In this document: one piece after another, positions 15,274-43,557 of the stretch
Position numbering within the stretch: position 1 is the first letter of the stretch
Layout of the letters: every line of letters begins with the position of its first letter
Origin: Alphaproteobacteria bacterium
Lineage (GTDB): Bacteria; Pseudomonadota; Alphaproteobacteria; CACIAM-22H2
Direction of reading: 5' to 3'
NCBI GenBank assembly: GCA_016793045.1
Contig: JAEUKZ010000077.1
Span: 1,497-65,496, forward strand
Length of the DNA: 64,000 nucleotides
Notes under the pieces: generated by a model
Database searches by the model: none
Seen by the model: the letters and a program-made list of their open reading frames with translations, nothing else
What the model was told of the DNA's origin: nothing
Translations under genes and position numbers: made by a program

Positions 15274-17025
15274 TCAGCCGGCGAAGGGCGTTTCGGGCTG
15301 GCCGCGGACCGTACCCGCGAGCGCAAAGATCGACCCCGACAGCGGCGCCTCCTGCAGCCGTTCGCGCGACAGGCGCGTGCGCGCCGTCGTGACATAGAGC
15401 GTCGTCAGCCCGCGCCCGCCGAAGGCGCAGCTCGTCGGCCGCGGCACTGGCAGGCGCACCACGCGATCGACCCGGCCCTTCGGATCGAACCGCTTCACCG
15501 ACCAGCCGTCCCAGATCGCACTCCAGACGAATCCCTCGCAATCGACGGCGAGCCCGGCCGGATTGCCGGCCTCGCCGGTCAGGTCGACGAACACCTCGCG
15601 GCCCTCCGCGACGCCGGAGGCGAGATCGAAGCGGTAGCGGTAGATCGTGCGTACGCGCGAATCGACGAAATACATCCAGCGATCGTCGGGGCTCCAGGCG
15701 ATGCCGTTCGACACACCGAAACCGCTGTCGATGCGGGTAACGCGGCGATCGGCATCGACGCGATAGAGCGCTCCCTGCGCTGCGGCTCCACCCATAGCCA
15801 TCGTGCCGACCCAGAAGCGACCAGCGCGATCGCAGCGGCCATCATTCGGTCGGTTGCGTGGGCGGTCCGCTTCGATTTCCGCAATCGGGCTCAGTTTGCC
15901 CGTCTCGGGATCGAGGGCCGAAAGACCGCGACGGGTCGCTGCGATCAGGCCGCCGGACTGCCGCAACGCGATGCAGGACACGAGTTCGTGCAGCGGCAGC
16001 ATCGGTCCGGGATTGCGCCCCGCCTTGACAGATCCCATGTGCGGATCAAGCAGGTCGACCCAATAGAGCGTCGACTGCCGCGCATTCCAGATCGGCGATT
16101 CGGGATTGAGGCCAGCATCCGGCGCGGCGCGTACGAGGTCTCGCGGTGGATCGCCGGCGGGTCGTGGCGGCGTCGAGATCGAGAACACCGGCGTCGCGCC
16201 GGCGTTTCCGGCGATCTGCCGCGCCGCATCCATGACGTCGCGCGCAGCGACGTGCATATCGGGTTTGGAAAGGCGAAAAGCAGGCAGCGAGACGCTGATC
16301 GCGCCGGTTGGCGCACCCGTGTGATCGAGAATCGGCGCGGCAACGCAACGTATCCCGGTCTCCAGTTCCTCGTCGTCGAGGGCGTAGCCACGAACGATGG
16401 TCAGATCGAGCTCGAGTTCGAGCGCCGTGCGATCGACGATCGTCCGTTGCGTCATCGCCTCCGGTTGCAGCCTGCTCACCGCATCTCCGCGCGCATCCGG
16501 CGTCGCGAAGGCAAGCAGCGCCTTGCCGAGTGCACTCGCATAGAGCGGCAGACGACGGCCGACACCGAATGGCAGCCGGAACGGCTGCGGCGCCTCGGCG
16601 AGGTCGATGATCAGGGCTTCAGTGCCGTCGGGAACTGCAAGATGGACCGACCCGCGCCACAGATCTGCGAGGCGCTGCATTTCCGCGGCGGCTGCATCGC
16701 GCAGATCGAAGTTGGCCCAGACACGGTGGGCGAGTTCGAACAGGCGCGACCCGAGCCGGTATGTCTGGTCGCGCGCCTGGAGCCGCACCAGGCGCTGGTC
16801 GATCAGCGCGCTGAGAATGCGGTGCAGAGTGCCTTTGGGCAGGCCGGACGCAGCCATGAGATCGGTGAAGCGAGGCGGCCGCGGGGCATCCGCGATCAGA
16901 TTGAGGACGCTGATCGCCTTCCCGAACGCCTGCGCGCCCTTGATGCCGTCGCCTCCCAAGTTCATCGCCATCGCATTCCGTCGCTCCGCGGCCATAGCAG
17001 CCACTTCATTGGAACTTTGTTTCAT
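15274..17025 (-). CDS. IclR-family transcriptional regulator fused to an SMP-30/gluconolactonase/LRE-like beta-propeller domain
   Basis: Single uninterrupted frame. The N-terminal ~270 aa form an IclR HTH plus effector domain (GIKGAQAFGKAISVLNLIAD...TLHRILSALIDQRLV...RGYALDDEELETGIRCVAAPI). The C-terminal ~300 aa form SMP-30/gluconolactonase (PESPIWNARQSTLYWVDLL...NDGRCDRAGRFWVGTM...SNGIAWSPDDRWMYFVDS...PDGLAVDCEGFVWSAIWDG). The 5' end is uncertain: ATGs at 17025, 16995 and 16971, and a TATAAT directly abuts the 17025 ATG. Confidence 0.72.
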   Translation of the reverse strand: MKQSSNEVAAMAAERRNAMAMNLGGDGIKGAQAFGKAISVLNLIADAPRPPRFTDLMAASGLPKGTLHRILSALIDQRLVRLQARDQTYRLGSRLFELAHRVWANFDLRDAAAAEMQRLADLWRGSVHLAVPDGTEALIIDLAEAPQPFRLPFGVGRRLPLYASALGKALLAFATPDARGDAVSRLQPEAMTQRTIVDRTALELELDLTIVRGYALDDEELETGIRCVAAPILDHTGAPTGAISVSLPAFRLSKPDMHVAARDVMDAARQIAGNAGATPVFSISTPPRPAGDPPRDLVRAAPDAGLNPESPIWNARQSTLYWVDLLDPHMGSVKAGRNPGPMLPLHELVSCIALRQSGGLIAATRRGLSALDPETGKLSPIAEIEADRPRNRPNDGRCDRAGRFWVGTMAMGGAAAQGALYRVDADRRVTRIDSGFGVSNGIAWSPDDRWMYFVDSRVRTIYRYRFDLASGVAEGREVFVDLTGEAGNPAGLAVDCEGFVWSAIWDGWSVKRFDPKGRVDRVVRLPVPRPTSCAFGGRGLTTLYVTTARTRLSRERLQEAPLSGSIFALAGTVRGQPETPFAG

Positions 17026-17220
17026 ATTATAGAACTCGGGGCAACACCTTGTGATCCGCGACCGCGGGCCATGTAGCGACGCCACGCGGCATCCGGCCAT
17101 TCTGTTTTCGCATGCGACCTGAGCGACCAAACGACGTATCGTCACGCCGCTCGGCCGCGACGTAAGCGATCACCGGTCGGTCGCCGGATCCCGCATTCAA
17201 GGACTCGACGTGAACACCTG

Positions 17221-18489
17221 ATGGACGGCCCCGCCTCAAATCGTCCGGGCGATGCGACGTCCTTTCGGCTCGGCACGTGGCTGTGGCCTCTCGTCGCCAC
17301 GCTGGCGATCCAAACGACCACCGCTTTCCTTTCCCGACTGGTGCCGACGATCGCACCGGTGCTGACGGCGGAGTTCGGCATGGCGCCGTCGGCGATCGGC
17401 CATCTCTCCGCGGTCTCGACGGTCGGCTCGATCATCTTCCTCGTCGCCGGCGCACCGCTGCTGCGGCGCGGCGGTCCCATTCGCGCCCTGCAGATCGGCC
17501 TCGCCTTCGGCGCCATCGGCGCTGCACTGCTCGCCATTCCCTTCATCGCCATCCCGGCGATCGCCAGCCTGCTGATCGGCCTCGGCTATGGGCCGTCGCC
17601 TTCCGCGGGCAGCGAGGTCCTTCAGCGCTACGCACCGAAGCGTCATCGCAGCCTGGTCTTCTCGATCAAGCAGGCCGGCGTTCCGCTCGGTGGCGTTTTG
17701 GCCGGCCTCATTCTGCCGGCGCTCGTCGAAGCGTTCGGCTGGCATTCGACGCTGATCTTCAGCGTCGCCGCGGCACTGACGACGATCGCCGCCGTCCAGC
17801 TGCTGCGCGAGCGCGTCGACGTCGACCGCGACCGCCGCCAGCGTCTCGACGTCGGAACCTTTTTCGCGATCGACAATCTCCTGCGGCCGTTGCGCGCGCT
17901 TGCGGCAGTTCCCACCCTGCCGCCGCTGATGCTCGTCGGCGCGTGCTTCGCGCTCAACCAGGGTGTGTGGATGGCGTTCCTGGTGACGATCGGCGTGACC
18001 GATCTCGGCCTGAGCCTCCCGGCCGCCGGTGCGGTCTATGCCGTTATGCAAGTCACCGGCATCTTCGGGCGCATCGTACTCGGCTGGGTGTCCGACCGGC
18101 TTGGGTCGGGCATTCCGGTCCTGCGATGCGTCGCCGTCGCGTCGGCTGCTACCTCCGCGGTCCTGTCGTTCGCCACCGCGGAGTGGCCGTACTGGATGCT
18201 CTGCGCCCTTGCCGGTGTCGCCGGCATAACAGTGTCGAGCTGGAACGGCGTCCAACTGTCTGAGATCGCCAGGCTGGTGCCGCGCAGCCTGATCGGCGAG
18301 ACGACCGCAGGGGCGACGATCCTGATCTTCCTCGGTTACGTCGTCGGCCCCGCAGGCTTCGCACTGCTGGTGGCCGCGACCGGCCGCTTCGACATCGGCT
18401 ATCTCACCGTCGCCGCGGTCTCCCTGCTTGCCTTCGGCGCGCTGCTGCGCTTCCCCCCGCGCCCGCCGGCGCCGGCCGGCGACGACTGA
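17221..18489 (+). CDS. MFS transporter
   Basis: 422 aa, about 12 predicted TM helices. It is divergent from the IclR fusion gene. Confidence 0.85.
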   Translation: MDGPASNRPGDATSFRLGTWLWPLVATLAIQTTTAFLSRLVPTIAPVLTAEFGMAPSAIGHLSAVSTVGSIIFLVAGAPLLRRGGPIRALQIGLAFGAIGAALLAIPFIAIPAIASLLIGLGYGPSPSAGSEVLQRYAPKRHRSLVFSIKQAGVPLGGVLAGLILPALVEAFGWHSTLIFSVAAALTTIAAVQLLRERVDVDRDRRQRLDVGTFFAIDNLLRPLRALAAVPTLPPLMLVGACFALNQGVWMAFLVTIGVTDLGLSLPAAGAVYAVMQVTGIFGRIVLGWVSDRLGSGIPVLRCVAVASAATSAVLSFATAEWPYWMLCALAGVAGITVSSWNGVQLSEIARLVPRSLIGETTAGATILIFLGYVVGPAGFALLVAATGRFDIGYLTVAAVSLLAFGALLRFPPRPPAPAGDD

Positions 18490-18507: not shown

Positions 18508-18825
18508 TCAGGGAACGCGCACGTCGAAGAGCGGCGGATATTGCTGCGAGCCGAAGACGTCGTGCTCGCCCGGCCCGCCGCTCGGCCGCAGCCGGCGGAT
18601 CGTAAACTTGATCGCATTGGCGGGTTCGAACACGACGAAGTCGGTGATCCGCGCCGGCTCGATGCGAAACAGCGCCGCGACCGTGTCGCGCGTCAGCACC
18701 TTGGCATCGCGCACCCGCTCGAAGTTGGCGCGTTCGCGGAAGATGATGTCGAAGGTGATGTGGTCGACTCCTGCATTCTTGCTGCGGATCGTCGACGCCA
18801 GGTCCCGAAGGGTCGTTGCGCTCAT
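18508..18825 (-). CDS. DUF4387-like small protein (partner of the AtuA-like protein)
   Basis: 105 aa, MSATTLRDLASTIRSKNAGVDHITFDIIFRER...FVVFEPANAIKFTIRR. AGGAG SD. The ATG is 1 nt after the AtuA-like stop (TGAtATG). Confidence 0.75.
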   Translation of the reverse strand: MSATTLRDLASTIRSKNAGVDHITFDIIFRERANFERVRDAKVLTRDTVAALFRIEPARITDFVVFEPANAIKFTIRRLRPSGGPGEHDVFGSQQYPPLFDVRVP

Positions 18826-18826
18826 A

Positions 18827-20215
18827 TCAGACCGTCTCCTTCGCGCCGGCCGGCGCGACGTCGTGAAAGCGTGTCCGGAAAAGTTCCTCCGGGTTCGCGG
18901 CGGCGATGATGTGATTGAGCGTCCACTCATAGCCCGCCTTGCCGATCAGGACTTCATCGGACATCAGCGCAGCCGTTCCGGCCGTTCCCTTGACGTCCGG
19001 CAGGCGCGCATAGAACAAGTTGCGCGCAGCGAGCGCGCAGATCTCCTCGGCCCGCTTGCCGTCGGCGCAGACGACCTCGACGACGATCCCCAATTCGTGC
19101 GGCGCCATCTCCGGATTCGGGTCGAGCCCCTCCATGACCGCGTTGCGTCCGTAGAGATGGTAGTAGACCTGGTACGCGCCGCCGATCGGCCCAAACCGCT
19201 CGCCCAGGCGATCTTTCGCCCACACGATCGCGCGGTCGATATTGGCGATGGTGTAGGGGTCGCGCACGCCGACAACGGACAGCCGACGCTCGCCGACCTT
19301 CCCGGCACCCTCGAGCTTGACCATGCAGACCGGACTCTTGACGAAGCGCGCGCCCGTCGCCCGCGTCGTCTTGGGGTCGACCTGTTCGTAGCGGCATTCG
19401 GTCATGTCGACATAGCCGCCGGCGACGTACTCGCGATCGGGCGACGACCGCTCGTACATCGCGTGGCTGGCCAGCGAGGCCGGCGTGCAGCGCTGGCCGG
19501 GATGCATGGCGGTGACGAACACGTCGTCGCCTTCGATGCGGCCGAGGATCGACTCCTTGCCCATGAACGGCTCGCAGCAGAACGACGCGCATTCCATGAG
19601 CTTGCCGGCGTAGTAGGCTGTGGCCGGGGAGCTTCCCGCATTCATCAGCGGCGCCGCGAAGATCGCGCAGTCGCTGGAGCGCCCGGCAATCACGACATCG
19701 GCGCCCGCGCGCAGCGCCGCCTGGATCGGCTCGGCGCCCATCACCGCTACGGCACGAGACGTCCGCGACAGCACGTCGTCGTCCGCATCGGGGCGACCGT
19801 CGAGCCCTTCGATCCGGGTGCCGCGCGCCGCACGGCTGCGCAGATCGGACACCGCGATTTCCGAATAGATCGCGGCGAGCTTGAACGGCGCCATGCGGTG
19901 GGCCGCGGCGATCTCACGGATCAGCGCGACGAACTGGTCGACGCCGCGATCGGTCCCGGTGTCCGACGCTGAGCCGATGATCATCGGCACGCCGAGCTTG
20001 CGCGCCTCGACGAGCATGACTTCGAGATCGTGCCGCTGCCAGGCCGGCGGGCTCGCCTGTCCGTCGGCGCCAAGCGGATAGGGACCGATGTCACAACTGC
20101 CGGAATCGGCGATGATGAAGTCGGGCTTCAGCGCACATCCCGCTCGAAAGCTTGCCGGCTCCAACGGCGTGAAACCGAGATGACCGGTCGGACATAGAAT
20201 CTTGATTGCCGCCAT
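18827..20215 (-). CDS. acyclic terpene utilisation AtuA-like (DUF1446) family protein
   Basis: 462 aa. MAAIKILCPTGHLGFTPLEPASFRAGCALKPDFIIADSGSCDIGPYPLG is the typical N-terminus of the DUF1446/AtuA family. GGAG SD precedes the ATG at 20215. Confidence 0.85.
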   Translation of the reverse strand: MAAIKILCPTGHLGFTPLEPASFRAGCALKPDFIIADSGSCDIGPYPLGADGQASPPAWQRHDLEVMLVEARKLGVPMIIGSASDTGTDRGVDQFVALIREIAAAHRMAPFKLAAIYSEIAVSDLRSRAARGTRIEGLDGRPDADDDVLSRTSRAVAVMGAEPIQAALRAGADVVIAGRSSDCAIFAAPLMNAGSSPATAYYAGKLMECASFCCEPFMGKESILGRIEGDDVFVTAMHPGQRCTPASLASHAMYERSSPDREYVAGGYVDMTECRYEQVDPKTTRATGARFVKSPVCMVKLEGAGKVGERRLSVVGVRDPYTIANIDRAIVWAKDRLGERFGPIGGAYQVYYHLYGRNAVMEGLDPNPEMAPHELGIVVEVVCADGKRAEEICALAARNLFYARLPDVKGTAGTAALMSDEVLIGKAGYEWTLNHIIAAANPEELFRTRFHDVAPAGAKETV

Positions 20216-20288: not shown

Positions 20289-20304
20289 AGCATCGCCCGT
20301 GCCA
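20289..20304 (-). promoter_or_regulatory. candidate sigma-54 (RpoN) promoter for atuA-like/DUF4387
   Basis: The minus strand reads TGGCACGGGCGATGCT. That is TGGCACG-N4-ATGCT against the consensus TGGCACG-N4-TTGCW, with canonical GG/GC spacing. The -12 element is about 75 nt upstream of the ATG at 20215, and a sigma-54 activator gene lies immediately upstream. Confidence 0.45.
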
Positions 20305-20331: not shown

Positions 20332-21474
20332 TTACATGCCGTTCTCGTCGTCCTCGTCGCCACCAATAGGAGCGGGACGCGCGGGATCCGCGCCGGTATG
20401 CGTGACCTGCACGCCCAGCGACATGCCGAGCTTGACCATCTGATGACGCAGGGCGTGGCGCGAGAGCCCGAGCTCGCGCGCTGCCCTGCCGAGCCGCCCG
20501 CGCGAGCGATCGAGCGCATGGGCAATGATCCTGCGTTGGAAGGTCCGCGTCGCCTCGTGGAAGCCGCCCGCCGATTCCGGCGCCGGCTGGGCAACCGTGG
20601 CAACGGGCTCCGGAATTCCGCCTTCAGCCGCCAGAAAGCGCCGGCCGATCTCGGTCTCCCTGAGGAACCGCGTCGGCAGATGCCGGAGGCGGATGACGTC
20701 GTCGTCCTCGAGGATGCAGATCCGCTCCAGCAGGTTTTCGAGTTCGCGGACGTTTCCGGGCCAGGAATACGCGCGAAAGAGCGCCGCCACATCGGGCTCC
20801 AGCCCGCGCATCGCGCGTCCGTGGCGGTAGTTGAGCGTTTCGATGAACGAGTTCGCGAGCACCATCACGTCGTCGCCGCGCTCGCGCAGTGGCGGAATGT
20901 TGATGGCGACGACCTGAAGCCGATAGTACAGATCCTCGCGGAAGTTGCCGGCCTTCACCTCGCTGAGGAGGATCTTGTTCGTCGACGCGACGAAGCGCAC
21001 GTCGACTTCGATCTCTTTGACCGCGCCGAGCCGCCGGAAGCGCTGGGTATCGAGCAAGGTCAGCAGCTTCGCCTGCAGCGTGAGGTCCATCTCGCGGACC
21101 TCGTCAAGGAATAGGGTGCCGCCATTCGCGACTTCGATCAGTCCGGACTTGGCCGAGATCGCGCCGGTGAACGCGCCGCGCTCGTGTCCGAACAGTTCGG
21201 ATTCGAGGAGATTGGCCGGAATGGCGGCGCAATTGACGTCGACGAACTCGCGATCACCCCGCGTCGAAAGGCGATGCAGCATCCGCGCGACGACTCCCTT
21301 GCCGGTGCCGGTCTCGCCGTAGATGAGGATGTTGCGCGCCTTGCTGGTCGCGACCTTGCGGACGAGCTGGCGCAGGCGGACGATCGATGGATGATCGCCG
21401 ATCAGGTTGCGCGCGAACTCGTCCCATGCGGTACCGGTCTTCGGCGCGTCCTGCATGCGCTCAGGGGTGGACAT
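20332..21474 (-). CDS. sigma-54-dependent transcriptional activator (bEBP), PspF-like: AAA+ sigma-54 interaction domain plus C-terminal Fis-type HTH, no N-terminal sensor/receiver domain
   Basis: Walker A GETGTGKG, GAFTGA motif (ESELFGHERGAFTGA), Walker B LFLDEV, arginine finger. C-terminal HTH RIIAHALDRSRGRLGRAARELGLSRHALRHQM. ATG at 21474 (MSTPERMQDAPKTGTAWDEF). The track's earlier TTG start is rejected. Confidence 0.85.
   Translation of the reverse strand: MSTPERMQDAPKTGTAWDEFARNLIGDHPSIVRLRQLVRKVATSKARNILIYGETGTGKGVVARMLHRLSTRGDREFVDVNCAAIPANLLESELFGHERGAFTGAISAKSGLIEVANGGTLFLDEVREMDLTLQAKLLTLLDTQRFRRLGAVKEIEVDVRFVASTNKILLSEVKAGNFREDLYYRLQVVAINIPPLRERGDDVMVLANSFIETLNYRHGRAMRGLEPDVAALFRAYSWPGNVRELENLLERICILEDDDVIRLRHLPTRFLRETEIGRRFLAAEGGIPEPVATVAQPAPESAGGFHEATRTFQRRIIAHALDRSRGRLGRAARELGLSRHALRHQMVKLGMSLGVQVTHTGADPARPAPIGGDEDDENGM
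20399..20415. promoter_or_regulatory. candidate enhancer/UAS palindrome TGCGTG-N5-CACGCC about 105-130 bp upstream of the atuA sigma-54 promoter (inside the 3' end of the activator gene)
   Basis: tgcgtgacctgcacgcc. The same 17-bp pattern with identical arms recurs at 28190-28206, upstream of the second sigma-54 promoter candidate. Confidence 0.3.
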
Positions 21475-22573
21475 CGTCAGCCCCCACTGGCGGCGCGAAA
21501 TCAAGCTGGTAGCGGTCCCATGGCGACGAACACGGCGTTCCGTCGGCGACTGTCATCGCCCGCAGCTGGGGTCGGAAGATCGCACTGGAGATTGTCCGGG
21601 ATTCCGGCGTGTCACCGTGCCGACATAGGCCCATCCCCGCCGGCCCATCGTGGCCTGACATCACGACGCGCGCGGACGCATCGGTCACCGCATTGCCTTC
21701 GAGCCACGTCCGCACCGTCCGCAGCCGCGCCAGCGAATTTGCCTGCCCGCGCGCATCGTCGCGGGTCTTGTCGGCCAAGGCGCCGTCAGTGAAGTGATTG
21801 GTCCGTGCAACCCAACGACCGTTGCCGCGATCGACGGCAATCGTCGAATGCCCCAGCTCGACCGCCGCCATCGCCCCGTGCCGATCCGCCAGGACGAGAC
21901 TGCCGCCGCCGCAATGGGGCATCGCACGCATGCGCGCGAGTGCCGCATCGACGTCGACGCAATTCGCCAGTATGTCCGTCATCACGAAATAGCGCAGCAG
22001 CCCCACGCCGTTGTCGAGCGAGCCGATCTGCGTATCCGCGAGCGCGAGCCCGTCGTCGTTGATGCCGCTCGAATAGGCGCCCGGCGCACCGAAGGAGCCG
22101 ACGCAGAGCAGCGTCCGCCCGCCCCACGCGGGATCGGCAATGCGAAACACCGCCGGTGGAAGCGGCCACCGACCGCCGTAGTCGCGGTTTTTTGCCAGAA
22201 TCGCGCCGGCTTCGGAATCCAGGGCCGCCCACGCCGTACATCCGTCGCCCGGACCGTCGACCACCGTGCAATGATCTGCGACTACGGCCAGATGCAGGGC
22301 GTCAAACAGATCTTTGTAGGAGAGTCCGTATCCGTCCGCCAGGACGGCGACCTCGGCGGCAGCAGCCGGATCGCGCTCGCTCAGAACTTCACGCATCCGC
22401 GTCAGATAGCGCCGCGCATCGTCGCGGGCGAGCAACGCGCGCGAATCGCCCAGGCGCCCTAGCATCGCAGCCCTGACCGTGTCGATCCGCGGACCCGCGG
22501 CGCGGATCTGCGCACGCGCGCGCTCGATCGGCCCGCCGTCCAGCCGCACGATGGACGTCGACGGGCTCGTCAT
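21461..22573 (-). CDS. C45-family peptidase / acyl-CoA:6-aminopenicillanic-acid acyltransferase-like autoproteolytic Ntn hydrolase
   Basis: 370 aa from MTSPSTSIVRLDGGPIERARAQI. It has a DG-CTAW self-cleavage/nucleophile motif (GPGDGCTAWAALD) followed by KNRDY. The ATG overlaps the DppF-like stop (ATGA) and the 3' end overlaps the activator start by 14 nt. Confidence 0.72.
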   Translation of the reverse strand: MTSPSTSIVRLDGGPIERARAQIRAAGPRIDTVRAAMLGRLGDSRALLARDDARRYLTRMREVLSERDPAAAAEVAVLADGYGLSYKDLFDALHLAVVADHCTVVDGPGDGCTAWAALDSEAGAILAKNRDYGGRWPLPPAVFRIADPAWGGRTLLCVGSFGAPGAYSSGINDDGLALADTQIGSLDNGVGLLRYFVMTDILANCVDVDAALARMRAMPHCGGGSLVLADRHGAMAAVELGHSTIAVDRGNGRWVARTNHFTDGALADKTRDDARGQANSLARLRTVRTWLEGNAVTDASARVVMSGHDGPAGMGLCRHGDTPESRTISSAIFRPQLRAMTVADGTPCSSPWDRYQLDFAPPVGADDVHP

Positions 22574-23565
22574 GCAGCGCCTCCGTAGAGATGACAGGCG
22601 ACGTGGTGGTCCGGCGCGACCCGCGTCGGCCGCGGCGCGATCGTGCGGCATTCCGGCATCGCCCGGGGGCAACGCGTGTGGAACTTGCACCCCGGAGGCG
22701 GCGCGAGCGGCGACGGCGGATCGCCGCCGAGGTGGGCAGCACGTGGGCCGGACCGATCGAGGCGGGGCGCGGCGGCGAGCAGCGCCTGCGTGTAGGGGTG
22801 ACGCGGCTCGTTGATCAGCCGCCGACAATCCGCGATCTCGACGATCTCGCCGAGATACATCACGGCAATCCGGTCGCTGAGATGCCCGACGACCGCGAGG
22901 TCGTGCGAGATGAAGAGATAGGTGAGGCTGAATTCGCGCCGCAGCTCGCGCAGCAGCTCGATGATCTGCGCCTGGATCGACACGTCCAATGCCGACACCG
23001 GCTCGTCGCAGACGACGAAGTCCGGACGCAGCGCCAGCGCGCGCGCGATGCCGATCCGCTGCCGCTGCCCGCCGGAGAACTGGTGCGGGTAGCGGTCGCG
23101 TTGCGAAGGCAGCAGCCCGACCCGCTCGATGATCGTCGCGGTCCGGTCCCGGAGCTCCCCCCTGCTCAGGCGCTCATGGATTCGAAGCGGCAGTGAGACG
23201 ATCTCCTCCACCGTGCGCCGCGGGTTCAGCGACGCATACGGGTCCTGGAAGATCATCTGCATCCGCTTGCGCATGCGGCGCAGCGCATGATGATCGAGCG
23301 TCGCCAGATCGGTGCCGTCGAAGCGGACCGTCCCTGCGGTGGGACTCTGGAGAAGCAGGACGCAGCGGCCCAGCGTACTCTTGCCGCAGCCGCTCTCGCC
23401 GATCAGACCAAGCGTCTCGCCGCGACGAACGGCGAAGCTGACGTCGTTGACCGCCTGGACGTGTCGCGTCGGTGCGCCGAACAGTCGCGCAGCAAGACTG
23501 GGCCGCTGCACGAACGACTTGACCAGACCTGCCACCTCGAGAAGGGGCGCCGCGATTTGGCTCAC
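22570..23565 (-). CDS. peptide ABC transporter ATP-binding protein (DppF/OppF-like)
   Basis: GTG start at 23565 is preceded by GGAAGGAG and overlaps the DppD-like stop (GTGA). [17 protein letters not shown] and a C-terminal oligopeptide-transporter extension are present. An upstream ATG at 23592 would overlap the preceding gene by 30 nt. Confidence 0.85.
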   Translation of the reverse strand: MSQIAAPLLEVAGLVKSFVQRPSLAARLFGAPTRHVQAVNDVSFAVRRGETLGLIGESGCGKSTLGRCVLLLQSPTAGTVRFDGTDLATLDHHALRRMRKRMQMIFQDPYASLNPRRTVEEIVSLPLRIHERLSRGELRDRTATIIERVGLLPSQRDRYPHQFSGGQRQRIGIARALALRPDFVVCDEPVSALDVSIQAQIIELLRELRREFSLTYLFISHDLAVVGHLSDRIAVMYLGEIVEIADCRRLINEPRHPYTQALLAAAPRLDRSGPRAAHLGGDPPSPLAPPPGCKFHTRCPRAMPECRTIAPRPTRVAPDHHVACHLYGGAA

Positions 23566-24572
23566 GGCGCGGCTCCTTCCGCCAGAACGCATCGCACCTG
23601 GCGTCCGGGCGAAACGTGCCGCATCGCGACCGCCGCAGCGCAGGAGTCGCGACGGTGCGGACAGCGCGCCGCGAACCGGCAGCCCTCGGGCGCCGAGATC
23701 AGATCGGGCACCTGCCCCACGATCGGTTCGATCGGGTGGTCCAGATCCTCCAGCTTCGGCAATGATCGCAAGAGTCCCTCGGTATAGGGGTGGCGTGGCG
23801 CGGCGATCACCTCGGCGGTCGGCCCCAGCTCGACGACTTGGCCGGCATACAACACCGCGACGCGATCGCAATAGGCCGCGACGACGCCTAGGTTGTGCGT
23901 GATCAGCACGACGCTCATGCCCAGCTTGGCACGCAGGCCGGCGATTAGATCGAGCACCTGCGCCTGGATCGTGACGTCGAGTGCGGTCGTCGGCTCGTCG
24001 GCGATGAGGAGGCGCGGGCGGCATGCCAGCGCGATCGCGATCATGATGCGCTGCCGCATCCCGCCTGAAAACTGGTGCGGATAGTCCGCGATGCGCGACT
24101 CCGCAGCGGGAATACCGACGAGCTGCATCAATTCGATGGCACGTGCGGTCGCGGCCGAGCGGCTCGCCGCCTGGTCATGTGCCCGCAGCACCTCGATGAT
24201 CTGGGTGCCGACCCGCAGAGCGGGATTCAGGGCCGTCAGCGCATCCTGCATCGTCATCGCGAGATCGCGCCCGCGCATTGCGCGGCGCGCGCGATCGTCG
24301 AGCGACGTCAGCTCGGTTCCGTCGAACCGGATCGATCCCTCGACGATCCGTCCAGGCTTCCGAATGAGTCCCATCACGCTGGCAAAGGTCGCGCTCTTGC
24401 CGGAGCCGGATTCACCGACGACGCCCAGGCATTCGCCGCGCCGAACGTCGAGATCGATCCCGTCGACCGCGCGCACGATGCCGCGATCGGTCTCGAACCA
24501 TGTTCGCAGCCCCTGGATCGCCAGGAGCGGCGTTCCCGCATCGCCGGACGCGTTTTGGACCTGCTCCTTCAT
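23562..24572 (-). CDS. peptide ABC transporter ATP-binding protein (DppD/OppD-like)
   Basis: 336 aa from [25 protein letters not shown]. The ATG overlaps the permease stop (ATGA). Confidence 0.9.
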   Translation of the reverse strand: MKEQVQNASGDAGTPLLAIQGLRTWFETDRGIVRAVDGIDLDVRRGECLGVVGESGSGKSATFASVMGLIRKPGRIVEGSIRFDGTELTSLDDRARRAMRGRDLAMTMQDALTALNPALRVGTQIIEVLRAHDQAASRSAATARAIELMQLVGIPAAESRIADYPHQFSGGMRQRIMIAIALACRPRLLIADEPTTALDVTIQAQVLDLIAGLRAKLGMSVVLITHNLGVVAAYCDRVAVLYAGQVVELGPTAEVIAAPRHPYTEGLLRSLPKLEDLDHPIEPIVGQVPDLISAPEGCRFAARCPHRRDSCAAAVAMRHVSPGRQVRCVLAEGAAP

Positions 24573-25444
24573 GTCCGCATCCGCGGATCGAACGCGTCGC
24601 GGAACCCCTGGCTGGCGACGTTGATCGAAAGCACCAGCGCCAGGATGGCGAGACCGGGGATCGTGCTGACCCACCACGCGTCGAGCAGGAAGTCGCGCCC
24701 GTCCGCGACCATCGCCCCCCACGATGCCGTCGGCGACTGAACCCCGAGTCCGAGGAAGGACAGGCTCGCCTCGAGCATGATCACGGTCGCCATGCGCACG
24801 GTCCCGACAACCAGGATCGGCGAGAGGATGTTTGGCAGGATTTCGCGGGTCATGATGTGCAGTCGCGACGCGCCCAAGGCGCGCGCGGCCTCGACATACT
24901 CGATCTCGCGTGCCGCCAGCGTTTCGCCGCGGACGACACGGAATGACACCACCCATTCGCGATAGACCAACGCCAGCACGAGATTGTGGAGCCCGGGCCC
25001 GGTCATCGCCATCAACCCGACCGCAAAGATCAGATAGGGAAAGGCGAGCAAGATCTCTGCAAGGCGGGACAGCAGCGTATCGGCCGTGCCGCGCAGGTAC
25101 CCGGCCGTCAGTCCGGCGATCGTGCCGATGCCGACAGCCAACGCCACAACCAGCAGGCCGATCGAGATCGATACGCGGGCGCCAAAGATCAGCCGCGAGA
25201 GGATGTCGCGTCCAAGCCCGTCACAACCGAGCGGAAAGGCCCACTCCCCGCCGTCCATCCAGGCCGGGGGCTGGAGGCGCCGCAGCAGGTCCGTATCGTC
25301 GACGGCGTGCGGGGCAATCCACGGCGCGAAGATGGCGGCAAGCGCCACGACGACGATGACCGCGGCCGCGCCCACCGCGCTGCGGTTGCGCAGGGCGCGC
25401 CGCCAAGCGAACGCGGTCGGAGACGTGACGGCTGCGGCACTCAC
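24569..25444 (-). CDS. peptide ABC transporter permease (DppC-like)
   Basis: GTG start at 25444 overlaps the DppB-like stop (GTGA). 291 aa, EAA-loop region YVEAARALGASRLHIMTREILPN. Confidence 0.85.
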   Translation of the reverse strand: MSAAAVTSPTAFAWRRALRNRSAVGAAAVIVVVALAAIFAPWIAPHAVDDTDLLRRLQPPAWMDGGEWAFPLGCDGLGRDILSRLIFGARVSISIGLLVVALAVGIGTIAGLTAGYLRGTADTLLSRLAEILLAFPYLIFAVGLMAMTGPGLHNLVLALVYREWVVSFRVVRGETLAAREIEYVEAARALGASRLHIMTREILPNILSPILVVGTVRMATVIMLEASLSFLGLGVQSPTASWGAMVADGRDFLLDAWWVSTIPGLAILALVLSINVASQGFRDAFDPRMRT

Positions 25445-26448
25445 AGCCGCACCCTTGGATTCAGCACGGTGTAGAGCAGGTCGGCCGCGAAATTCAGCGC
25501 CACATAGGTTACTGCGTAGAGCAGGACCGCGGCCTGCACGAGGGGGTAGTTGCGCGCGAAGATGCTTTCGACGACGAGGCGGCCGAGGCCCGGCCAGCCG
25601 AAGACCGTTTCGACGACCATGTTGCCGCCGAGGAGCGTCCCCGTCTCCAGCGCTGCTACGCTCACGGCGGGAATCAGCGCGTTCTTGAGCGCGTGGAGGC
25701 CGATGATGCGGGCCCGCGAAAGCCCCTTCGCCTCGGCGAACGTGATGTAGTCGGCCCGAAGCACCTCGATCATTGCGCTTCGCGTCACGCGCATGAGGAT
25801 CGCCGCCGACGGCAGGCCGAGCGTGAAGGCCGGCAAGGCGAGATGGCGGAGGACCTCCCAAAAGCTGTCCATGCGCCCGGCGATCAGGCTATCGACCAGC
25901 GCAAATCCTGTGACTGCCGGCACTTCCATCGCATAACCGAGCCGGCCAGCCACAGGCAGGATCTGAAGTTGAACGGCGAAGAAGAGAATCAGCAGGATCC
26001 CGAACCAGAACCCGGGAAGGGAGACGCCGAAAAGCGAGCCTACGGTCGCGATGCGATCGAGGATCGTATCGCGTCGCACCGCGGCGAGAACGCCGAGCGG
26101 GATCGCAAGACCGATCGCGATCAGCATCGCGGCAACCGTCAATTCGATCGTCGCCGGCAGGCGTTCGGAAATGACTGCCGAAACCGGCCGGCGGTGGAAG
26201 AAGCTCTGGCCGAAATCGCCCCGTATGGCGTTGGTTACGAAGACGAAGTAGCGCTCCACCGCCGGCCGATCGAGCCCCATGTCGCGCCGCATCGACGCGA
26301 CCTGCTCAGGCGTCGCGCGCTGGTCCCCCAGCATGATCTCCACCGGGTCCCCGGGCGTCAGCGAGATCATCAGGAAGACGATGACGCTGACGCCCGCGAG
26401 AACCGGGATCAGATGGAGGATCCGTTCAACGAAGCGCGCGATGGGCAT
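25441..26448 (-). CDS. peptide ABC transporter permease (DppB-like)
   Basis: 335 aa, MPIARFVERILHLIPVLAGVSVIVFLMISLTPGDP. Confidence 0.9.
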   Translation of the reverse strand: MPIARFVERILHLIPVLAGVSVIVFLMISLTPGDPVEIMLGDQRATPEQVASMRRDMGLDRPAVERYFVFVTNAIRGDFGQSFFHRRPVSAVISERLPATIELTVAAMLIAIGLAIPLGVLAAVRRDTILDRIATVGSLFGVSLPGFWFGILLILFFAVQLQILPVAGRLGYAMEVPAVTGFALVDSLIAGRMDSFWEVLRHLALPAFTLGLPSAAILMRVTRSAMIEVLRADYITFAEAKGLSRARIIGLHALKNALIPAVSVAALETGTLLGGNMVVETVFGWPGLGRLVVESIFARNYPLVQAAVLLYAVTYVALNFAADLLYTVLNPRVRL

Positions 26449-26460
26449 GCGTCGCGTCGA

Positions 26461-27990
26461 TCAGCGCATCGTCGCGCGCTGCAGGTTTATCCGGCTGTCG
26501 GCATTCGGCTCCCAGCCCTGCAGTCGACGCGAAACGCCGTAGAGGTCCTGTGGCAGCCAAAGGAAAAGCCACGGCGCCTCCCGATTCACGATCGCCTGAG
26601 CGCGCATGTACATGTCGCGCCGCTTGTTGACGTCGACTTCAGTCTCCGCCGCATCGAGCAGCTGATCGACTTCGGCGTTCGAGAAGCCGGCGGAATTGCC
26701 ACGCCCGCCGGTGCGGAGCGTGGGTACCATGATGTCCGACGGATCGAGCGCCCCGTTCCCCCACGATGTGAAGAACATGTCGCGTTCGCGGCGACGCTCA
26801 GCGTTCTGCCAGATCGGCGTCAGCACCGACCCTTCCCAGACCTGCACTCGGATCCGCAGCCCGACGCGGTTGAGCATCGAGGCGATCGCCTCGCTGATCT
26901 CGCGATAGGCGCTCTGGGTGTCGATCACCGCCTCGAAGCCGTTGGCATGGCCCGCTTCGGCCAGAAGGCGGCGCGCCAGCGCCTGGTCGAAGGTGAACTC
27001 AGGCAGGTCGCGATTGAACGCGAAGGCGTCGGGACTCATCACGCCGTTGAGCGGAACCGCCGCATCCGCAAGGATGCGCTGGATGATGAGGTTGCGGTCG
27101 ATCGCGTGGTTCATCGCACGGCGAACGCGCGGGTCATTGAATGGCGCGCGGTCATTGTTGAACGCGATGAAGAACGTACGCGTCCCGTTGACCCGTGCGA
27201 CGCGCGTGTTCGGGTTGGCTTCGACCTGCCGGATCGCCGACGCGGGCAGTTCGTTGATGATCTCGACGCTGCCGGAAAGCAGCGCCGCGACCCGCGCGGC
27301 ATTCTCCGGGATCACGCGAATGATCACGCGGTCGACGTTGGCCGGTCCGACCGGGGGGATCGAGCGCGCGCCGCCGAAATAGTCGTTGAATCGTTCGAGG
27401 ATCAGCGAGTCGCCGCGCCGCCATTCGACCAGGCGGAAAGCGCCGGTGCCGTTCGCCTGGGTCGCCATGCCGGCGGTCCCCACCCGCTCGACGAAGCGGC
27501 GGCTGACGACCTCCTGGAACGGCAGCATGGCCGTGAGGATCGGCCACGGCTCGCGCAGGATGAAACGCACCGCGTAGGGCCCGATGACCTCAACCGCCCG
27601 GAGCGGCCCGAGCAGGCTCTGGCGCGGGCTCGTCTGGCCGTCCATCGCGTTCGTCTGCGTCAGACGGTCGAAGGTGAACTTGATGTCTTCGGCGGTCAGT
27701 TCGTCGCCGCTGTGGAAGCGCACGCCGCGATGGATCGTGAACTCGTAGGTGACGGGGTCGACCTGCCGCCAGGTGTCGATCAGTTCGGGCACGACCTCCA
27801 TACGCGAATTGCGCGTGAAGAGCCCGTCATACATCTGCCTGATGATGGTCTCGGTCTCGCGCGAACGGTGGTTGCCGGGGTCGAGGGTCAGCGCATCCTG
27901 CGTGAACCCGATTCGGATCTCGGCCGCTTGTGCGCCGGCTGTGCCAAGCATGACAGCCCCAACCAGCGCCCGCAAAAACTTGGTTCGCAT
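26461..27990 (-). CDS. peptide/nickel ABC transporter substrate-binding protein (family 5, DppA-like)
   Basis: 509 aa from MRTKFLRALVGAVMLGTAGAQA (Sec signal). GGAGG lies 7 nt before the ATG at 27990. Another ATG 6 nt upstream sits too close to the SD. Confidence 0.9.
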   Translation of the reverse strand: MRTKFLRALVGAVMLGTAGAQAAEIRIGFTQDALTLDPGNHRSRETETIIRQMYDGLFTRNSRMEVVPELIDTWRQVDPVTYEFTIHRGVRFHSGDELTAEDIKFTFDRLTQTNAMDGQTSPRQSLLGPLRAVEVIGPYAVRFILREPWPILTAMLPFQEVVSRRFVERVGTAGMATQANGTGAFRLVEWRRGDSLILERFNDYFGGARSIPPVGPANVDRVIIRVIPENAARVAALLSGSVEIINELPASAIRQVEANPNTRVARVNGTRTFFIAFNNDRAPFNDPRVRRAMNHAIDRNLIIQRILADAAVPLNGVMSPDAFAFNRDLPEFTFDQALARRLLAEAGHANGFEAVIDTQSAYREISEAIASMLNRVGLRIRVQVWEGSVLTPIWQNAERRRERDMFFTSWGNGALDPSDIMVPTLRTGGRGNSAGFSNAEVDQLLDAAETEVDVNKRRDMYMRAQAIVNREAPWLFLWLPQDLYGVSRRLQGWEPNADSRINLQRATMR

Positions 27991-28058
27991 CGGCATGCCT
28001 CCCGTTCCACCCTGTTGAACACAACCAGCGCGCTTCGCGCGCAATGCCACCGTTCAGC

Positions 28059-28074
28059 AGCAAAACCCAAGCCA
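28059..28074 (-). promoter_or_regulatory. candidate sigma-54 promoter for the dpp-C45-activator operon
   Basis: The minus strand reads TGGCTTGGGTTTTGCT. This gives TGGC at -24 and TTGCT at -12 with canonical spacing; the two positions after TGGC deviate from the consensus. The -12 element is about 70 nt upstream of the SBP ATG. Confidence 0.35.
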
Positions 28075-28114: not shown

Positions 28115-28127
28115 TATCAATAGTTTA
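28115..28127. promoter_or_regulatory. IHF consensus site (WATCAANNNNTTR) inside a ~45-bp AT-rich island
   Basis: tatcaatagttta matches the consensus exactly. The surrounding 28093-28136 (aaaatctttaattacaaatttatatcaatagtttatagaatatc) stands out in a ~67% GC background. It is centred about 48 bp upstream of the candidate -24. Confidence 0.3.
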
Positions 28128-28189
28128 TAGAATATCTCTCGCGGCGGCATGGTGAACTGCCGTGCCGCGATGTTTGTATATCACGCCAG

Positions 28190-28206
28190 TGCGTGTAACG
28201 CACGCC
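28190..28206. promoter_or_regulatory. candidate enhancer/UAS palindrome TGCGTG-N5-CACGCC upstream of the dpp sigma-54 promoter
   Basis: tgcgtgtaacgcacgcc. It is the second copy of the motif at 20399-20415 and lies about 120 bp upstream of the candidate -24 element. Confidence 0.3.
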
Positions 28207-28356
28207 ACCGTATTGGGTATGGTTCGGCGTGGGCCGGAGCGGCGCTTCCCCGGCCGCTTGTCGCGACTCCCTACGCTCGTCAATATGCGCCATGCGACCT
28301 GTTCCCGACATTGCGGCGCAGCACGCGGACGCGCACCCTCCGTTCACGCCGGCGCG

Positions 28357-29754
28357 ATGACACCCGCCGGACCGCGATCCGACCCGCGACCACTCGACGT
28401 CGCCGTCATCGGCGCCGGGGTCGTCGGCTGTGCGGTCTTCCGCGAGTTCGCAATCGCCGGTGCGCGTTGCGCCTTGATCGAACGCGATGCGGATCTCCTG
28501 GCCGGCGCCAGCAAGGGCAATAGTGCGATCCTGCACACCGGCTTCGATGCCACGCCAGGAACGCTGGAGGCGCGCTGCGTTGGCGACGGCTATCGGCGCT
28601 ACCGCGAGATCCACGCAAAGTTGAACCTGCCCGTTCTCGACACCGGTGCCGTCGTCGTGGCCTGGACGGCCCAAGAGGAGGCTGCACTGCCTGCCATCGT
28701 CGCGCGCGCGCATGAAAATGGCGTCCGTGACGTGCGCCTGATGGGCGCAGCGGAATTGCGTGTTCGCGAACCGAGGCTCGCGGCGGATGCTCGCGCGGCC
28801 GTGCTCGTTCCGGGGGAAGCGATCATCGATCCATGGTCGGCCCCGCTGGCCTACGCGCTGCAGGGGCTCGCTCATGGCGGCACCGTCCATCGCAATACCC
28901 TGGTCAAGGGCGGCACGCGTACGCCCGAAGGCTGGAAACTCGCAACGGATGCCGGCGTGATTCACGCGCGAGTGGTGGTCAACTGCGCCGGCAATTTCGG
29001 CGATCACGTCGAAGCGATCGCCCGCCCAAGTCCGTTCCGCATCCGGCCCCGCAAGGGCCAGTTCGTCGTGTTCGACAAATCTGCCAGCGCGATCGCCAGC
29101 TCGATCGTCCTGCCCGTGCCGACGGAACGGACGAAGGGCGTCGTCGTCTGCAGGACCATTTTCGGCAACCTGATCGTCGGGCCGACGGCTGAGGACCAGG
29201 ACGATCGCACGGCCGCAACGGTCGATCAGGCCGCGCTGCGTGCCCTCATCGACACGGGAACACGCATTCTACCCGCGCTCGCTGATCATCCGGTGACCGC
29301 GACCTATGCCGGACTGCGGCCGGCGACGGAGCACAAGGACTACCAGATCGAGGCGCTGCCTTCAGCGAACTGGATCACGGTCGCCGGCATACGCTCGACC
29401 GGCCTTACCGGATCGCTTGGAATCGCCGCCCACGTGCGCGACCTCCATGAGGAACACTTCGGCCGCTTCGACCCCCCCGCCACGATCATCTGGACTCCTG
29501 TCGACAATCTTGCAGAGCATCGCCCGCGGGGCCACATGGCGTGCGACCGCAGCCGGATCGTCTGCCACTGCGAGCTGGTGACCGAGCGCGAGATCGCCGC
29601 CGCATTTGAAGGCCCACTGCCGGTCGCGAGCCTCGGCGGGCTCAAGCGCAGGACGCGTTGCATGATGGGCCGCTGCCAGGGCTTCTATTGCACGCGCAGG
29701 GTCATGGAGATCGCTTCCGGCCGCTGCGGCGACCTCGTCGAGCATATCGCATGA
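28357..29754 (+). CDS. FAD-dependent oxidoreductase with C-terminal BFD-like [2Fe-2S] domain (GlpA/LhgO-like; probable glycerol-3-phosphate dehydrogenase component)
   Basis: DVAVIGAGVVGC dinucleotide fold. C-terminal CHCELVTEREI...CMMGRCQGFYC. Start uncertain: ATG at 28357 (MTPAGPRSDPRPLDVAVIG) is preferred over 28285. Confidence 0.78.
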   Translation: MTPAGPRSDPRPLDVAVIGAGVVGCAVFREFAIAGARCALIERDADLLAGASKGNSAILHTGFDATPGTLEARCVGDGYRRYREIHAKLNLPVLDTGAVVVAWTAQEEAALPAIVARAHENGVRDVRLMGAAELRVREPRLAADARAAVLVPGEAIIDPWSAPLAYALQGLAHGGTVHRNTLVKGGTRTPEGWKLATDAGVIHARVVVNCAGNFGDHVEAIARPSPFRIRPRKGQFVVFDKSASAIASSIVLPVPTERTKGVVVCRTIFGNLIVGPTAEDQDDRTAATVDQAALRALIDTGTRILPALADHPVTATYAGLRPATEHKDYQIEALPSANWITVAGIRSTGLTGSLGIAAHVRDLHEEHFGRFDPPATIIWTPVDNLAEHRPRGHMACDRSRIVCHCELVTEREIAAAFEGPLPVASLGGLKRRTRCMMGRCQGFYCTRRVMEIASGRCGDLVEHIA

Positions 29755-30968
29755 CGGACAAGGCGATCATCGATCGCCCCGTCGTGATCATCGGCGCCGG
29801 CCCGGCCGGATTGACTGCCGCGCGCCGGTTGCGCGATCTGGGCACACAAGGCGTGCTCGTGGTCGAGCGCAATCCGGAGGCCGGAGGTCTACCGCGCTTC
29901 TGCGGCCATCCCGGCTGGGGCCTTCTCGACTTCGGGCGTGTCTGGCGCGGCCCAGTCTACGCCCGCAAGCTGGTCGCAGCCGCCAGCGGCGTCGAGATTC
30001 TCACCGACGCCACGGTGACGGCGCTACATCCAGGCGGCAGGATCGAGGTCAGCAGCAGATCGGGCCCGATGACCGTCCATGCGCATGCAGCCCTGATCGC
30101 CACCGGTATCCGCGAGGCTCCGCGCAGCGCCAGACTGGTCGGCGGAAGCCGGCCGTGGGGCGTGACCACAACCGGCGCATTCCAGGAGATGGTCTACGCC
30201 GGCAGCCTACGGCCGTTCCGGCGGCCCGTCATCGTCGGCAGCGAACTTGTGAGCTTTTCCGCGCTGCTCACCGCACGCCACGCCGGGATCAGACCCGTTG
30301 CGATGATCGAGGAAGGCCCACGGATCGTCGCCTATCGTCCGGGCGACTGGATCGCACGCTGGGCGTTCGGCGTTCCTGTGATGACGAACGCCCACGTCGT
30401 CGAGATCTGCGGCACCGATCGTGTCGAAGCCGTTCTGGTGGAGCGTGCTGGCCACCGCGAGCGCATCGCCTGCGACGGCGTGATCTTCACGGGGCAGTTC
30501 ACGCCCGAGGCCACGCTCGCCCGCCTCGGCCACCTTCATGTCGATCCGCGCACCGGCGGTCCGTCGATCGACGATCGCTGGCGCTGCTCCGATCCCGCAT
30601 ACTTCGCAGCAGGAAACGTTCTTCGTCCCGTCGAGCATTCCGGCTTCGTCGCCGCCGAGGCCCGCAGGGCGGCGGACTCGATCGCCACGGCTCTGACCTC
30701 GCAGGACGCGAGCGGTGACGCCGCGGTCGCGGTCATGCCCGGCGGCGCTGCCCGGTACGTCTACCCCCAGCGGATCGTCTCCCGCGAGGCGCGCGTGATG
30801 CTCTACGGACGCGCCGACCGGGAACACCGCGGTCATCTTCGGGTCGCGGTCGACGGACGGATCATCGCCGAACGGCGAGTTCATGCACGCCCGGAACGCC
30901 GTCTCGCCATCGCGATCGACGCGGGAGGCCTGCGCGGCGCCGCGGCACTCTCATTCATTCTGGACTAG
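29751..30968 (+). CDS. NAD(P)/FAD-dependent (pyridine nucleotide-disulfide family) oxidoreductase
   Basis: MTDKAIIDRPVVIIGAGPAGLTAARRL. ATGA overlap with the preceding stop. Confidence 0.8.
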   Translation: MTDKAIIDRPVVIIGAGPAGLTAARRLRDLGTQGVLVVERNPEAGGLPRFCGHPGWGLLDFGRVWRGPVYARKLVAAASGVEILTDATVTALHPGGRIEVSSRSGPMTVHAHAALIATGIREAPRSARLVGGSRPWGVTTTGAFQEMVYAGSLRPFRRPVIVGSELVSFSALLTARHAGIRPVAMIEEGPRIVAYRPGDWIARWAFGVPVMTNAHVVEICGTDRVEAVLVERAGHRERIACDGVIFTGQFTPEATLARLGHLHVDPRTGGPSIDDRWRCSDPAYFAAGNVLRPVEHSGFVAAEARRAADSIATALTSQDASGDAAVAVMPGGAARYVYPQRIVSREARVMLYGRADREHRGHLRVAVDGRIIAERRVHARPERRLAIAIDAGGLRGAAALSFILD

Positions 30969-30979
30969 AACACCGATCC

Positions 30980-35785: not shown

Positions 35786-35804
35786 TCCGGTCGTCCGATC
35801 GCCA

Positions 35805-36389: not shown

Positions 36390-36390
36390 C

Positions 36391-37484: not shown

Positions 37485-37489
37485 CGCGC

Positions 37490-38290: not shown

Positions 38291-38300
38291 GTCTCGCGTC

Positions 38301-39933: not shown

Positions 39934-39967
39934 AGTCTCCTCCCGTATCGGCGGCGCCGATTGTGCG

Positions 39968-39996: not shown

Positions 39997-40081
39997 ATAC
40001 GAAGTTTGAGCGCGGTCGGCAATCCGTCGGACGGCGCGGCACAACATGCTGATTAAAAAGCGAGAAACGGATATCGGCGCG

Positions 40082-43524: not shown

Positions 43525-43557
43525 GAGCGGCCGGAGCGATCCCTACGGGGGCGAATC

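Follow-up and report, generated by a model that had tools for sequence, protein, structure and literature searches.

An AtuA-family/DUF4387 gene pair related to citramalate lyase in a predicted sigma-54-controlled import and amide-hydrolysis module of an alphaproteobacterium

Which reaction would be carried out by an AtuA-like (DUF1446) protein and its DUF4387 partner when their genes lie behind a peptide-type importer and a putative amidohydrolase? This question is raised by a locus on a 64,000-nucleotide stretch of the genome of an Alphaproteobacteria bacterium (assembly GCA_016793045.1, contig JAEUKZ010000077.1, positions 1,497 to 65,496), hereafter called the window, in which the gene pair occupies positions 18,508 to 20,215. 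An earlier note on this stretch considered the biochemistry of the pair as unknown and proposed from the genomic context that it takes part in the processing of an imported amide or peptide-like compound. Our data place the pair in the enzyme family of the citramalate lyase CmlAB, and we propose, by analogy with this relative and with guarded confidence, that it probably breaks down an imported amide compound by a CmlAB-type lyase reaction in a self-contained, sigma-54-controlled module.

The large subunit gene (18827..20215, minus strand) encodes a protein of 462 aa whose N-terminus reads MAAIKILCPTGHLGF..ADSGSCDIGPYPLG, and the small subunit gene (18508..18825, minus strand) a protein of 105 aa. 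The two domain assignments of the earlier note hold in profile searches, PF07287 (AtuA) aligning with the large protein over profile positions 1-408 of 437 (E 6.8e-28, 98 bits for a cutoff of 22.8) and PF14330 (DUF4387) with the small one over positions 1-97 of 98 (E 2.6e-35), while no NCBIfam model was found for either subunit. The translational coupling through TGAtATG, also claimed before, can be read directly in the sequence, the stop codon of the large subunit gene being at 18829-18827 and the ATG of the small subunit gene at 18825-18823. GGAGA ribosome-binding sites are present for the pair, and the two open reading frames (ORFs) have a GC content at third codon positions of 0.85 and 0.81, in a window of 68% GC. 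The AtuA-like gene precedes the DUF4387 gene in every assessable locus among the 85 loci examined. A literature search under the DUF, Pfam and InterPro identifiers returned nothing on the clade to which the pair of the window belongs.

Both proteins have a single clear relative among solved structures, the complex of Raoultella planticola deposited as 9ERQ and 9EVF. In these entries chain A is named "AtuA family protein" and "Citramalate lyase, subunit A (cmlA)", and chain B "DUF4387" and "Citramalate lyase, subunit B (cmlB)". The large subunit aligns over its full length with 9ERQ_A (residues 3-457, E 2.5e-65, 33% identity) and the small subunit with 9ERQ_B (residues 5-102, E 4.1e-20). An AlphaFold2 model of the large subunit (mean predicted local distance difference test score of 87) was superposed on 9EVF_A by Foldseek with an E-value of 2e-46 and TM-scores of 0.85/0.86, and no other fold of the PDB was retrieved for this model at E<1e-3. 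The entry 9EVF, released on 2025-10-08, is entitled "Citramalate lyase - ADP - pyruvate complex", where ADP stands for adenosine diphosphate. The function of CmlAB is taken here from the molecule names and titles of the PDB and from one preprint using the enzyme, which employs it to cleave citramalate directly into pyruvate and acetate (bioRxiv 10.64898/2026.01.16.699985).

The genomic context of the enterobacterial relatives is in agreement with these names. In Escherichia coli O157:H7 Sakai the gene order is glmS-glmL-glmE-mal-ECs_0760-ECs_0759-transporter-fumarase, ECs_0760 being nearly identical to 9ERQ_A (E 1e-291) and ECs_0759 being approximately 41% identical to the small subunit of the window; the large subunit is 32-33% identical to CmlA of R. 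planticola and E. coli. As in the window, the genes of the ~460-aa AtuA-family protein and of the ~105-aa DUF4387 protein are adjacent in both species. A DUF1446 gene located downstream of mal had already been flagged in 2015 in glutamate-fermentation clusters of enterobacteria, in a study that did not detect citramalate lyase activity in any of the conditions tried (PMC4682846). In RefSeq, ECs_0760 and ECs_0759 (NC_002695.2; 31934-33618 of our locus L086) are called "3-methylaspartate ammonia-lyase" and "acyl-CoA synthetase", and both names are wrong in view of 9ERQ. Since the homology to the CmlAB structures and the context in strain Sakai converge, the biochemistry of the family is not unknown any more, and the description given in the earlier note is outdated in this respect: from its sequence, the pair of the window is a member of the CmlAB enzyme family.

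To which part of this family the pair belongs was addressed by a scan with one genome per species, which gave 80 loci falling into three tiers of identity, the comparison to the window proteins being made by tblastn; the neighbouring ORFs of the loci were clustered and the cluster representatives named with Pfam. The lowest tier (34-37% identity) comprises 25 loci, mostly of Bacillota, and its recurrent neighbours are a methylaspartate ammonia-lyase gene immediately upstream (11 loci), MutE and MutL (9 loci each), a B12-binding subunit (7 loci) and the subunits of a fumarase/mesaconase (7 and 5 loci). This tier is the CmlAB clade, and 9ERQ_A falls inside the methylaspartate-linked clade in a neighbour-joining tree, where the clade of the window is parted from it at the deepest split. 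No gene for methylaspartate ammonia-lyase, glutamate mutase or mesaconase is present in the window or beside the 60 loci of the 52-77% tiers. Sixty-three positions are conserved in all clades, among them D37, S40, D42, K205, E208, C209, H251, Y254, E255, K300, E302, R318, D319 and E374, and serve only as a proxy for the residues contacting pyruvate and ADP in 9EVF. Another 23 positions, many of them charged or polar, are fixed within each clade yet different between clades (e.g., H12I, D51G, D85G, Q241R, E262L, R404G, D420P and E421S), the D85G site lying in a glycine-rich loop that reads GSASDTG in the window and GTAGGSG in CmlA. This residue pattern fits a shared catalytic core acting on a different substrate, without proving it. 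Across a library of 1.84 billion representatives the whole superfamily amounts to just 306 clusters (E<=1e-30), and the clade of the window collapses there to essentially one full-length 50% cluster.

These data bear directly on the best surviving alternative, that the pair is an isofunctional (S)-citramalate lyase and a true CmlAB orthologue, with the C45-family hydrolase encoded upstream freeing citramalate from an imported citramalyl amide, or with a role in general C5-dicarboxylate metabolism and an importer adjacent only incidentally. The full-length homology, the common fold with CmlA and CmlB and the 63 core positions would all be expected in that case, and pyruvate and acetate as products would require no further enzymes in a self-contained module. 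However, the identity of only 32-33% to the known CmlA proteins, the deep split in the tree, the 23 clade-specific substitutions and the lack of genes for mesaconase, for methylaspartate ammonia-lyase and for glutamate mutase in the window and at all 60 loci of its clade make this alternative rather unlikely, and judged from sequence the pair of the window is not a CmlAB orthologue. Whereas CmlAB is encoded in its own cluster, glmS-glmL-glmE-mal-cmlA-cmlB-transporter-fumD (PMC4682846), the pair of the window comes after importer genes of the Dpp type, a C45 hydrolase gene and the gene of a sigma-54 activator.

The importer and the hydrolase invoked as genomic context in the earlier note were both recovered by profile searches, upstream of the pair and on the same strand. 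In the direction of transcription (minus strand), the run starts with a periplasmic family-5 solute-binding protein (26461..27996; PF00496, E 5.5e-77) carrying a Sec signal peptide (..GTAGAQA/AEIRIG), followed by two permeases of the ATP-binding cassette (ABC) type, one with BPD_transp_1_N and BPD_transp_1 domains (25441..26448) and one with OppC_N and BPD_transp_1 domains (24569..25444), and by two ABC ATPases with an oligo_HPY C-terminus, DppD-like (23562..24572, start overlap ATGA) and DppF-like (22570..23565, start overlap GTGA). The next gene (21461..22573) encodes a predicted C45-family N-terminal nucleophile (Ntn), autoproteolytic amidohydrolase/acyltransferase (PF03417, E 1.3e-16; NF040521, E 1.4e-41, 142.9 bits for a cutoff of 85), in which the cysteine of the DGC(T/S)A motif is invariant and AKNRDY is present in the alignment; its N-terminus has no signal peptide, and its start overlaps the stop of the upstream gene by 4 bp. 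With refined starts, six gene starts of the upstream run overlap the preceding stop by this same distance. Regarding the transported compound, the best named NCBIfam relatives of the binding protein are GsiB (the top one, E 7.5e-48), Opp and NikA, all below their cutoffs, and its PDB relatives are 5U4O (an unnamed entry) followed by GsiB/YliB, HbpA and AccA; the sole PDB relative of the C45 protein is the uncharacterised 3GVZ, and no substrate was identified by the PDB relatives of either protein.

A comparable arrangement is known in E. coli, where the isoaspartyl peptidase gene iaaA, encoding an Ntn hydrolase, precedes the glutathione Dpp-type importer genes gsiABCD. The likeness consists in a family-5 binding protein and Dpp-type importer co-transcribed with an Ntn amidohydrolase; however, the nucleophile family differs, C45 with a cysteine in the window versus T2 with a threonine in E. 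coli, and iaaA-gsiABCD is not known to include a lyase pair or a sigma-54 control.

The module is conserved far beyond the window. The nine-gene order of binding protein, two permeases, two ATPases, C45 hydrolase, sigma-54 activator, AtuA-like protein and DUF4387 protein was found identically, with unrelated flanks, in Neoroseomonas eburnea, Elioraea tepidiphila and a JGI genome. Among the close relatives (65-77% identity), the C45 gene lies directly upstream of the pair in 28 of the 35 assessable cases, with the Dpp-type importer further upstream where the contig reaches, and these linked relatives include Acetobacteraceae, Geminicoccaceae, Rhodospirillaceae, Paracoccaceae and a metagenome-assembled genome (MAG) of Burkholderiaceae. 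The linkage to transporter and hydrolase genes is co-conserved across several alphaproteobacterial families. Among these relatives the activator is restricted to the Acetobacteraceae, with which the window shares it; in the relatives without it, the C45 gene directly adjoins the pair (30-250 bp), the operon being preceded by a LysR or GntR gene. In the sister tier (52-59% identity), a Dpp-type importer is linked to the pair in Bacillota, Actinomycetota, Dormiibacterota and Devosia, and at four loci an amidase of family C26 (PuuD-type) takes the place of the C45 hydrolase. Neighbour clustering found no enzyme gene recurring with the module beyond those just named; the IF-2B/MtnA-like and glutamyl-tRNA synthetase (GluRS) genes lying downstream of it in the sister clade look like unrelated housekeeping genes and were discarded. 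From the comparison of the loci, the lyase pair forms a minimal conserved unit together with an ABC importer and a regulator, to which a cysteine amidase is added in most lineages. On both sides of the module in the window, the convergent gene of the major facilitator superfamily (17221-18489) and the divergent flavoprotein and FGGY genes (28162-32419) were rejected as parts of it, being not conserved with it.

Two loci are worth describing for themselves. In an Acetobacteraceae MAG (L054, 8192-8884) the C45 gene is seemingly truncated, with an ORF of 230 aa and no full-length tblastn match, and the transporter, the activator and the lyase pair are intact. In a Burkholderiales MAG devoid of Dpp and C45 genes (L030, 8119-9873), a divergently oriented gene beside the pair encodes a peptide transporter of the SbmA/BacA type in fusion with an ABC ATPase, and this is again a peptide-uptake neighbour.

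The activator gene, which is unmentioned in the earlier note, is located directly upstream of the lyase pair (20332..21456, minus strand, with an alternative start at 21474). It encodes a sigma-54 enhancer-binding protein with an AAA+ domain (PF00158, E 4.6e-65) and an HTH_8 domain (PF02954), in which the Walker A motif GETGTGKG, the GAFTGA motif, Walker B and the helix-turn-helix (HTH) are recognised in the alignment. Since the orthologues begin approximately 6 aa before the AAA+ core, the activator has no N-terminal sensor domain. In this it resembles PspF and the HrpR/S-type activators without regulatory domain, which likewise consist only of an AAA+ domain with GAFTGA and a C-terminal HTH, and the activator of the window can be aligned with the PspF model over its entire length, although below the cutoff. 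The differences with these systems are that no gene for an anti-activator resembling PspA or HrpV is evident and that the targets would be catabolic promoters.

A sigma-54 promoter (-24/-12) of the lyase pair is predicted at 20289..20304 on the minus strand (TGGCACGGGCGATGCT), with one mismatch to TGGCAC-N5-TTGCW. Taken alone the motif is not above chance, since 17 matches with up to 2 mismatches occur in the window for 19.7 expected. The comparison across loci, rather than the score of the single site, makes the candidate convincing: the site scores 13.5 or more (of 14.5) in each of the 10 loci with the activator, and none of the 26 relatives lacking it exceeds 10.5. The promoter candidate proposed in front of the pair in the earlier note is therefore supported by a perfect co-occurrence with the activator of the cluster. 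A second sigma-54 promoter is predicted for the operon of the transporter, C45 and activator genes (28059..28074, minus strand, TGGCTTGGGTTTTGCT), and wherever the contig is long enough, the loci with the activator share the pattern TGGCnnG-N4-TTGCT in front of the binding-protein gene. As for the first promoter, its occurrence follows the presence of the activator (10 loci versus 26). In a Rhodospirillales MAG (L029), a sigma-54-like site (TGGCGCGGGAATTGCT, score 13.5) is also found upstream of the binding-protein gene, and no activator gene is in the cluster.

Candidate binding sites of the activator were defined at the binding-protein promoters of the related loci. Within the 200 nt preceding these promoters in the activator-containing loci, the inverted repeat GCGYG-N5-CRCGC occurs at 8.5 versus 0.45 per kb, a 19-fold enrichment, and usually in two copies 19-21 bp apart. 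In the window, one candidate (GCGTG-CGTTA-CACGC) is found at 28191..28205 (minus strand), upstream of the binding-protein promoter, and two others, 21 bp apart (20400-20414 and 20379-20393, minus strand), fall within the activator gene, at its 3' end. The activator of the window carries a C-terminal extension of ~25 aa (20332-20420) absent in its orthologues, the DNA of which holds these two repeats. Between the inverted repeat at 28191 and the promoter, a consensus site for the integration host factor (IHF) is predicted at 28115..28127 (plus strand, TATCAATAGTTTA) in a dip of 30-38% GC, and it is the only match to WATCAANNNNTTR on either strand of the 64-kb window. Judged from these motifs, the hallmarks of a sigma-54 system appear to be assembled here, namely the spacing of the -24 GG and -12 GC elements, an activator with GAFTGA, a candidate upstream activator site and a site for IHF; the window does not contain rpoN itself. 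Both here and in the Acetobacteraceae, the sensor-less activator would drive the two sigma-54 promoters, that of the binding-protein gene and that of the lyase pair. Positive autoregulation of the circuit is expected, since the activator gene is inside the operon that it activates.

Our proposal for the module is as follows: (i) the family-5 binding protein and the Dpp-type ABC importer would bring in a small peptide-like, amide-linked compound; (ii) the cytoplasmic C45 Ntn hydrolase would cut its amide bond with the cysteine nucleophile; and (iii) the CmlAB-like heteromeric enzyme would cleave a C-C bond of a citramalate-like 2-hydroxy-acid, which would be the last step of the module. The first two steps follow from well-established functions of the families and from the localisation signals, and the third from the analogy with a single characterised relative, which is 33% identical. 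By the same analogy with the conversion of citramalate into pyruvate and acetate, the products would be central metabolites and no further dedicated enzymes would be needed. Family membership, fold, gene order, synteny and the co-occurrence of the promoters with the activator are established by the data, whereas the order of the steps, a lyase reaction on a substrate other than citramalate and the nature of the compound are inferred. The role in the processing of an imported amide or peptide-like compound that had been drawn from the context holds up well as an idea.

Several points weigh against this proposal. An identity of only 33% to CmlA does not allow a safe transfer of the chemistry, and ADP is present in 9EVF, so that the family may perform a nucleotide-dependent chemistry outside the proposed scheme. 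Seven of the 35 close relatives, belonging to Rokuibacteriota, Methylomirabilota, Acidoferrum and Burkholderiales MAGs, carry neither the C45 nor the Dpp genes. A subgroup of the 52-59% tier, with a GntR regulator, an SBP_6/1-type importer and a fused permease, has no amidase, which means that an amidase is not obligatory for the lyase pair. Finally, the proposed scheme does not account for the input signal of the sensor-less activator.

Some of these points would fit a second alternative, in which the pair performs a chemistry other than C-C lysis, such as the conversion of the imported amide in a nucleotide-dependent reaction that precedes or follows the hydrolysis by C45. The ADP bound in 9EVF, the glycine-rich loop that differs between the clades and the part of the sister clade without amidase go in this direction, but the sole characterised member of the family is a lyase and the polar core residues are conserved, so that we regard this alternative as improbable. 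A regulatory function is far less credible. According to this explanation the pair would not be a catabolic enzyme but would act on the sigma-54 activator as a regulatory partner or anti-activator, as PspA does on PspF, which the missing sensor domain and the position of the pair as the direct target of the activator could suggest; however, 26 of 36 close relatives and all distant ones except one (L035) carry the pair without any activator, and the enzyme-like core is conserved with CmlA, which leaves this explanation very little probability. A genuine AtuA function in the utilisation of acyclic terpenes (citronellol/geraniol), suggested by the match to a Pfam family of this name, was rejected on genomic context and is hardly tenable, since 98 bits are modest for a full-length Pfam match and since no atu/liu genes for biotin carboxylase, acyl-CoA dehydrogenase or enoyl-CoA hydratase were found among the scanned ORFs of the window or the recurrent neighbours of the 85 loci.

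The observation of the earlier note that such pairs occur without acyclic-terpene genes applies to the window as well. To our knowledge, no activity has been demonstrated for AtuA itself. The AtuA of the Pseudomonas atu cluster belongs to the same family (PF07287), the likeness being known at family level, and differs from the pair of the window by its atu/liu neighbours (geranyl-CoA carboxylase, acyl-CoA dehydrogenase and hydratase, in an atuABCDEFGH-like cluster).

Returning to the lyase proposal, its wider meaning depends on the second and larger clade, which is wired to importers and amidases and shows that the CmlAB fold serves more than glutamate fermentation; such a clade would imply an abundant environmental substrate. 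Tentatively, and as a possibility which we consider less probable than not, the clade of the window could be an unrecognised branch of the CmlAB superfamily acting on a substrate other than citramalate, in a widespread route by which Alphaproteobacteria of soil and freshwater would catabolise an amide-conjugated hydroxy-polycarboxylic acid from the environment, with relatives in Bacillota and Actinomycetota. If this were true, candidates for the conjugate would include amides of the citryl, malyl or citramalyl type, among them fragments of citrate-amide siderophores, and conjugates of the gamma-glutamyl type, and import followed by a single amidase reaction and a single C-C cleavage would be enough to reach central metabolism. 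The canonical AtuA would then be suggested as the acetate-releasing lyase that is missing from the terpene pathway. Since DUF1446/AtuA and DUF4387 proteins are annotated as unknown or are mis-annotated, the link to CmlAB gives them a concrete and testable chemistry. Enzymes of the CmlAB kind have been defined very recently, and the module of the window represents a coherent, widespread and experimentally tractable variant of them, and it would offer a clean natural case of a sensor-less sigma-54 activator acting on catabolic genes through two promoters.

The remainder of the window holds other catabolic and transport genes. Divergently from the binding-protein promoter (28162-32419, plus strand) lie a flavoprotein with DAO and BFD domains, whose best model is a type 2 glycerol-3-phosphate oxidase below the cutoff, a Pyr_redox_2 protein and an FGGY kinase; the true start of the gene at 28162 is probably further downstream, since the listed GTG start would overlap the activator-binding repeat. 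A protocatechuate-branch beta-ketoadipate cluster (33645-40047, minus strand) comprises an IclR regulator, a 3-carboxymuconate cycloisomerase-like Lyase_1 protein, a dioxygenase subunit, an alpha/beta hydrolase and two CoA-transferase subunits. It is followed (40963-46911, minus strand) by a conserved pair in which a circularly permuted ATP-grasp/Alpha-E protein (853 aa) adjoins a protein of 1117 aa with transglutaminase-N/core domains and a DUF2126 "putative amidoligase" domain. Between 47064 and 62400, two more sets of family-5 binding protein and Dpp-type genes, bringing to three the Dpp-type systems of the window, are interleaved with DAO, Pyr_redox_2 and BFD-[2Fe-2S] flavoproteins that resemble opine or sarcosine oxidases. 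Lastly, a single ORF of 623 aa (15274-17145, minus strand) contains a complete IclR regulator (HTH_IclR and IclR_C) and then an SMP-30/gluconolactonase domain, and corresponds either to a fusion or to two genes that are not separated by an in-frame stop.

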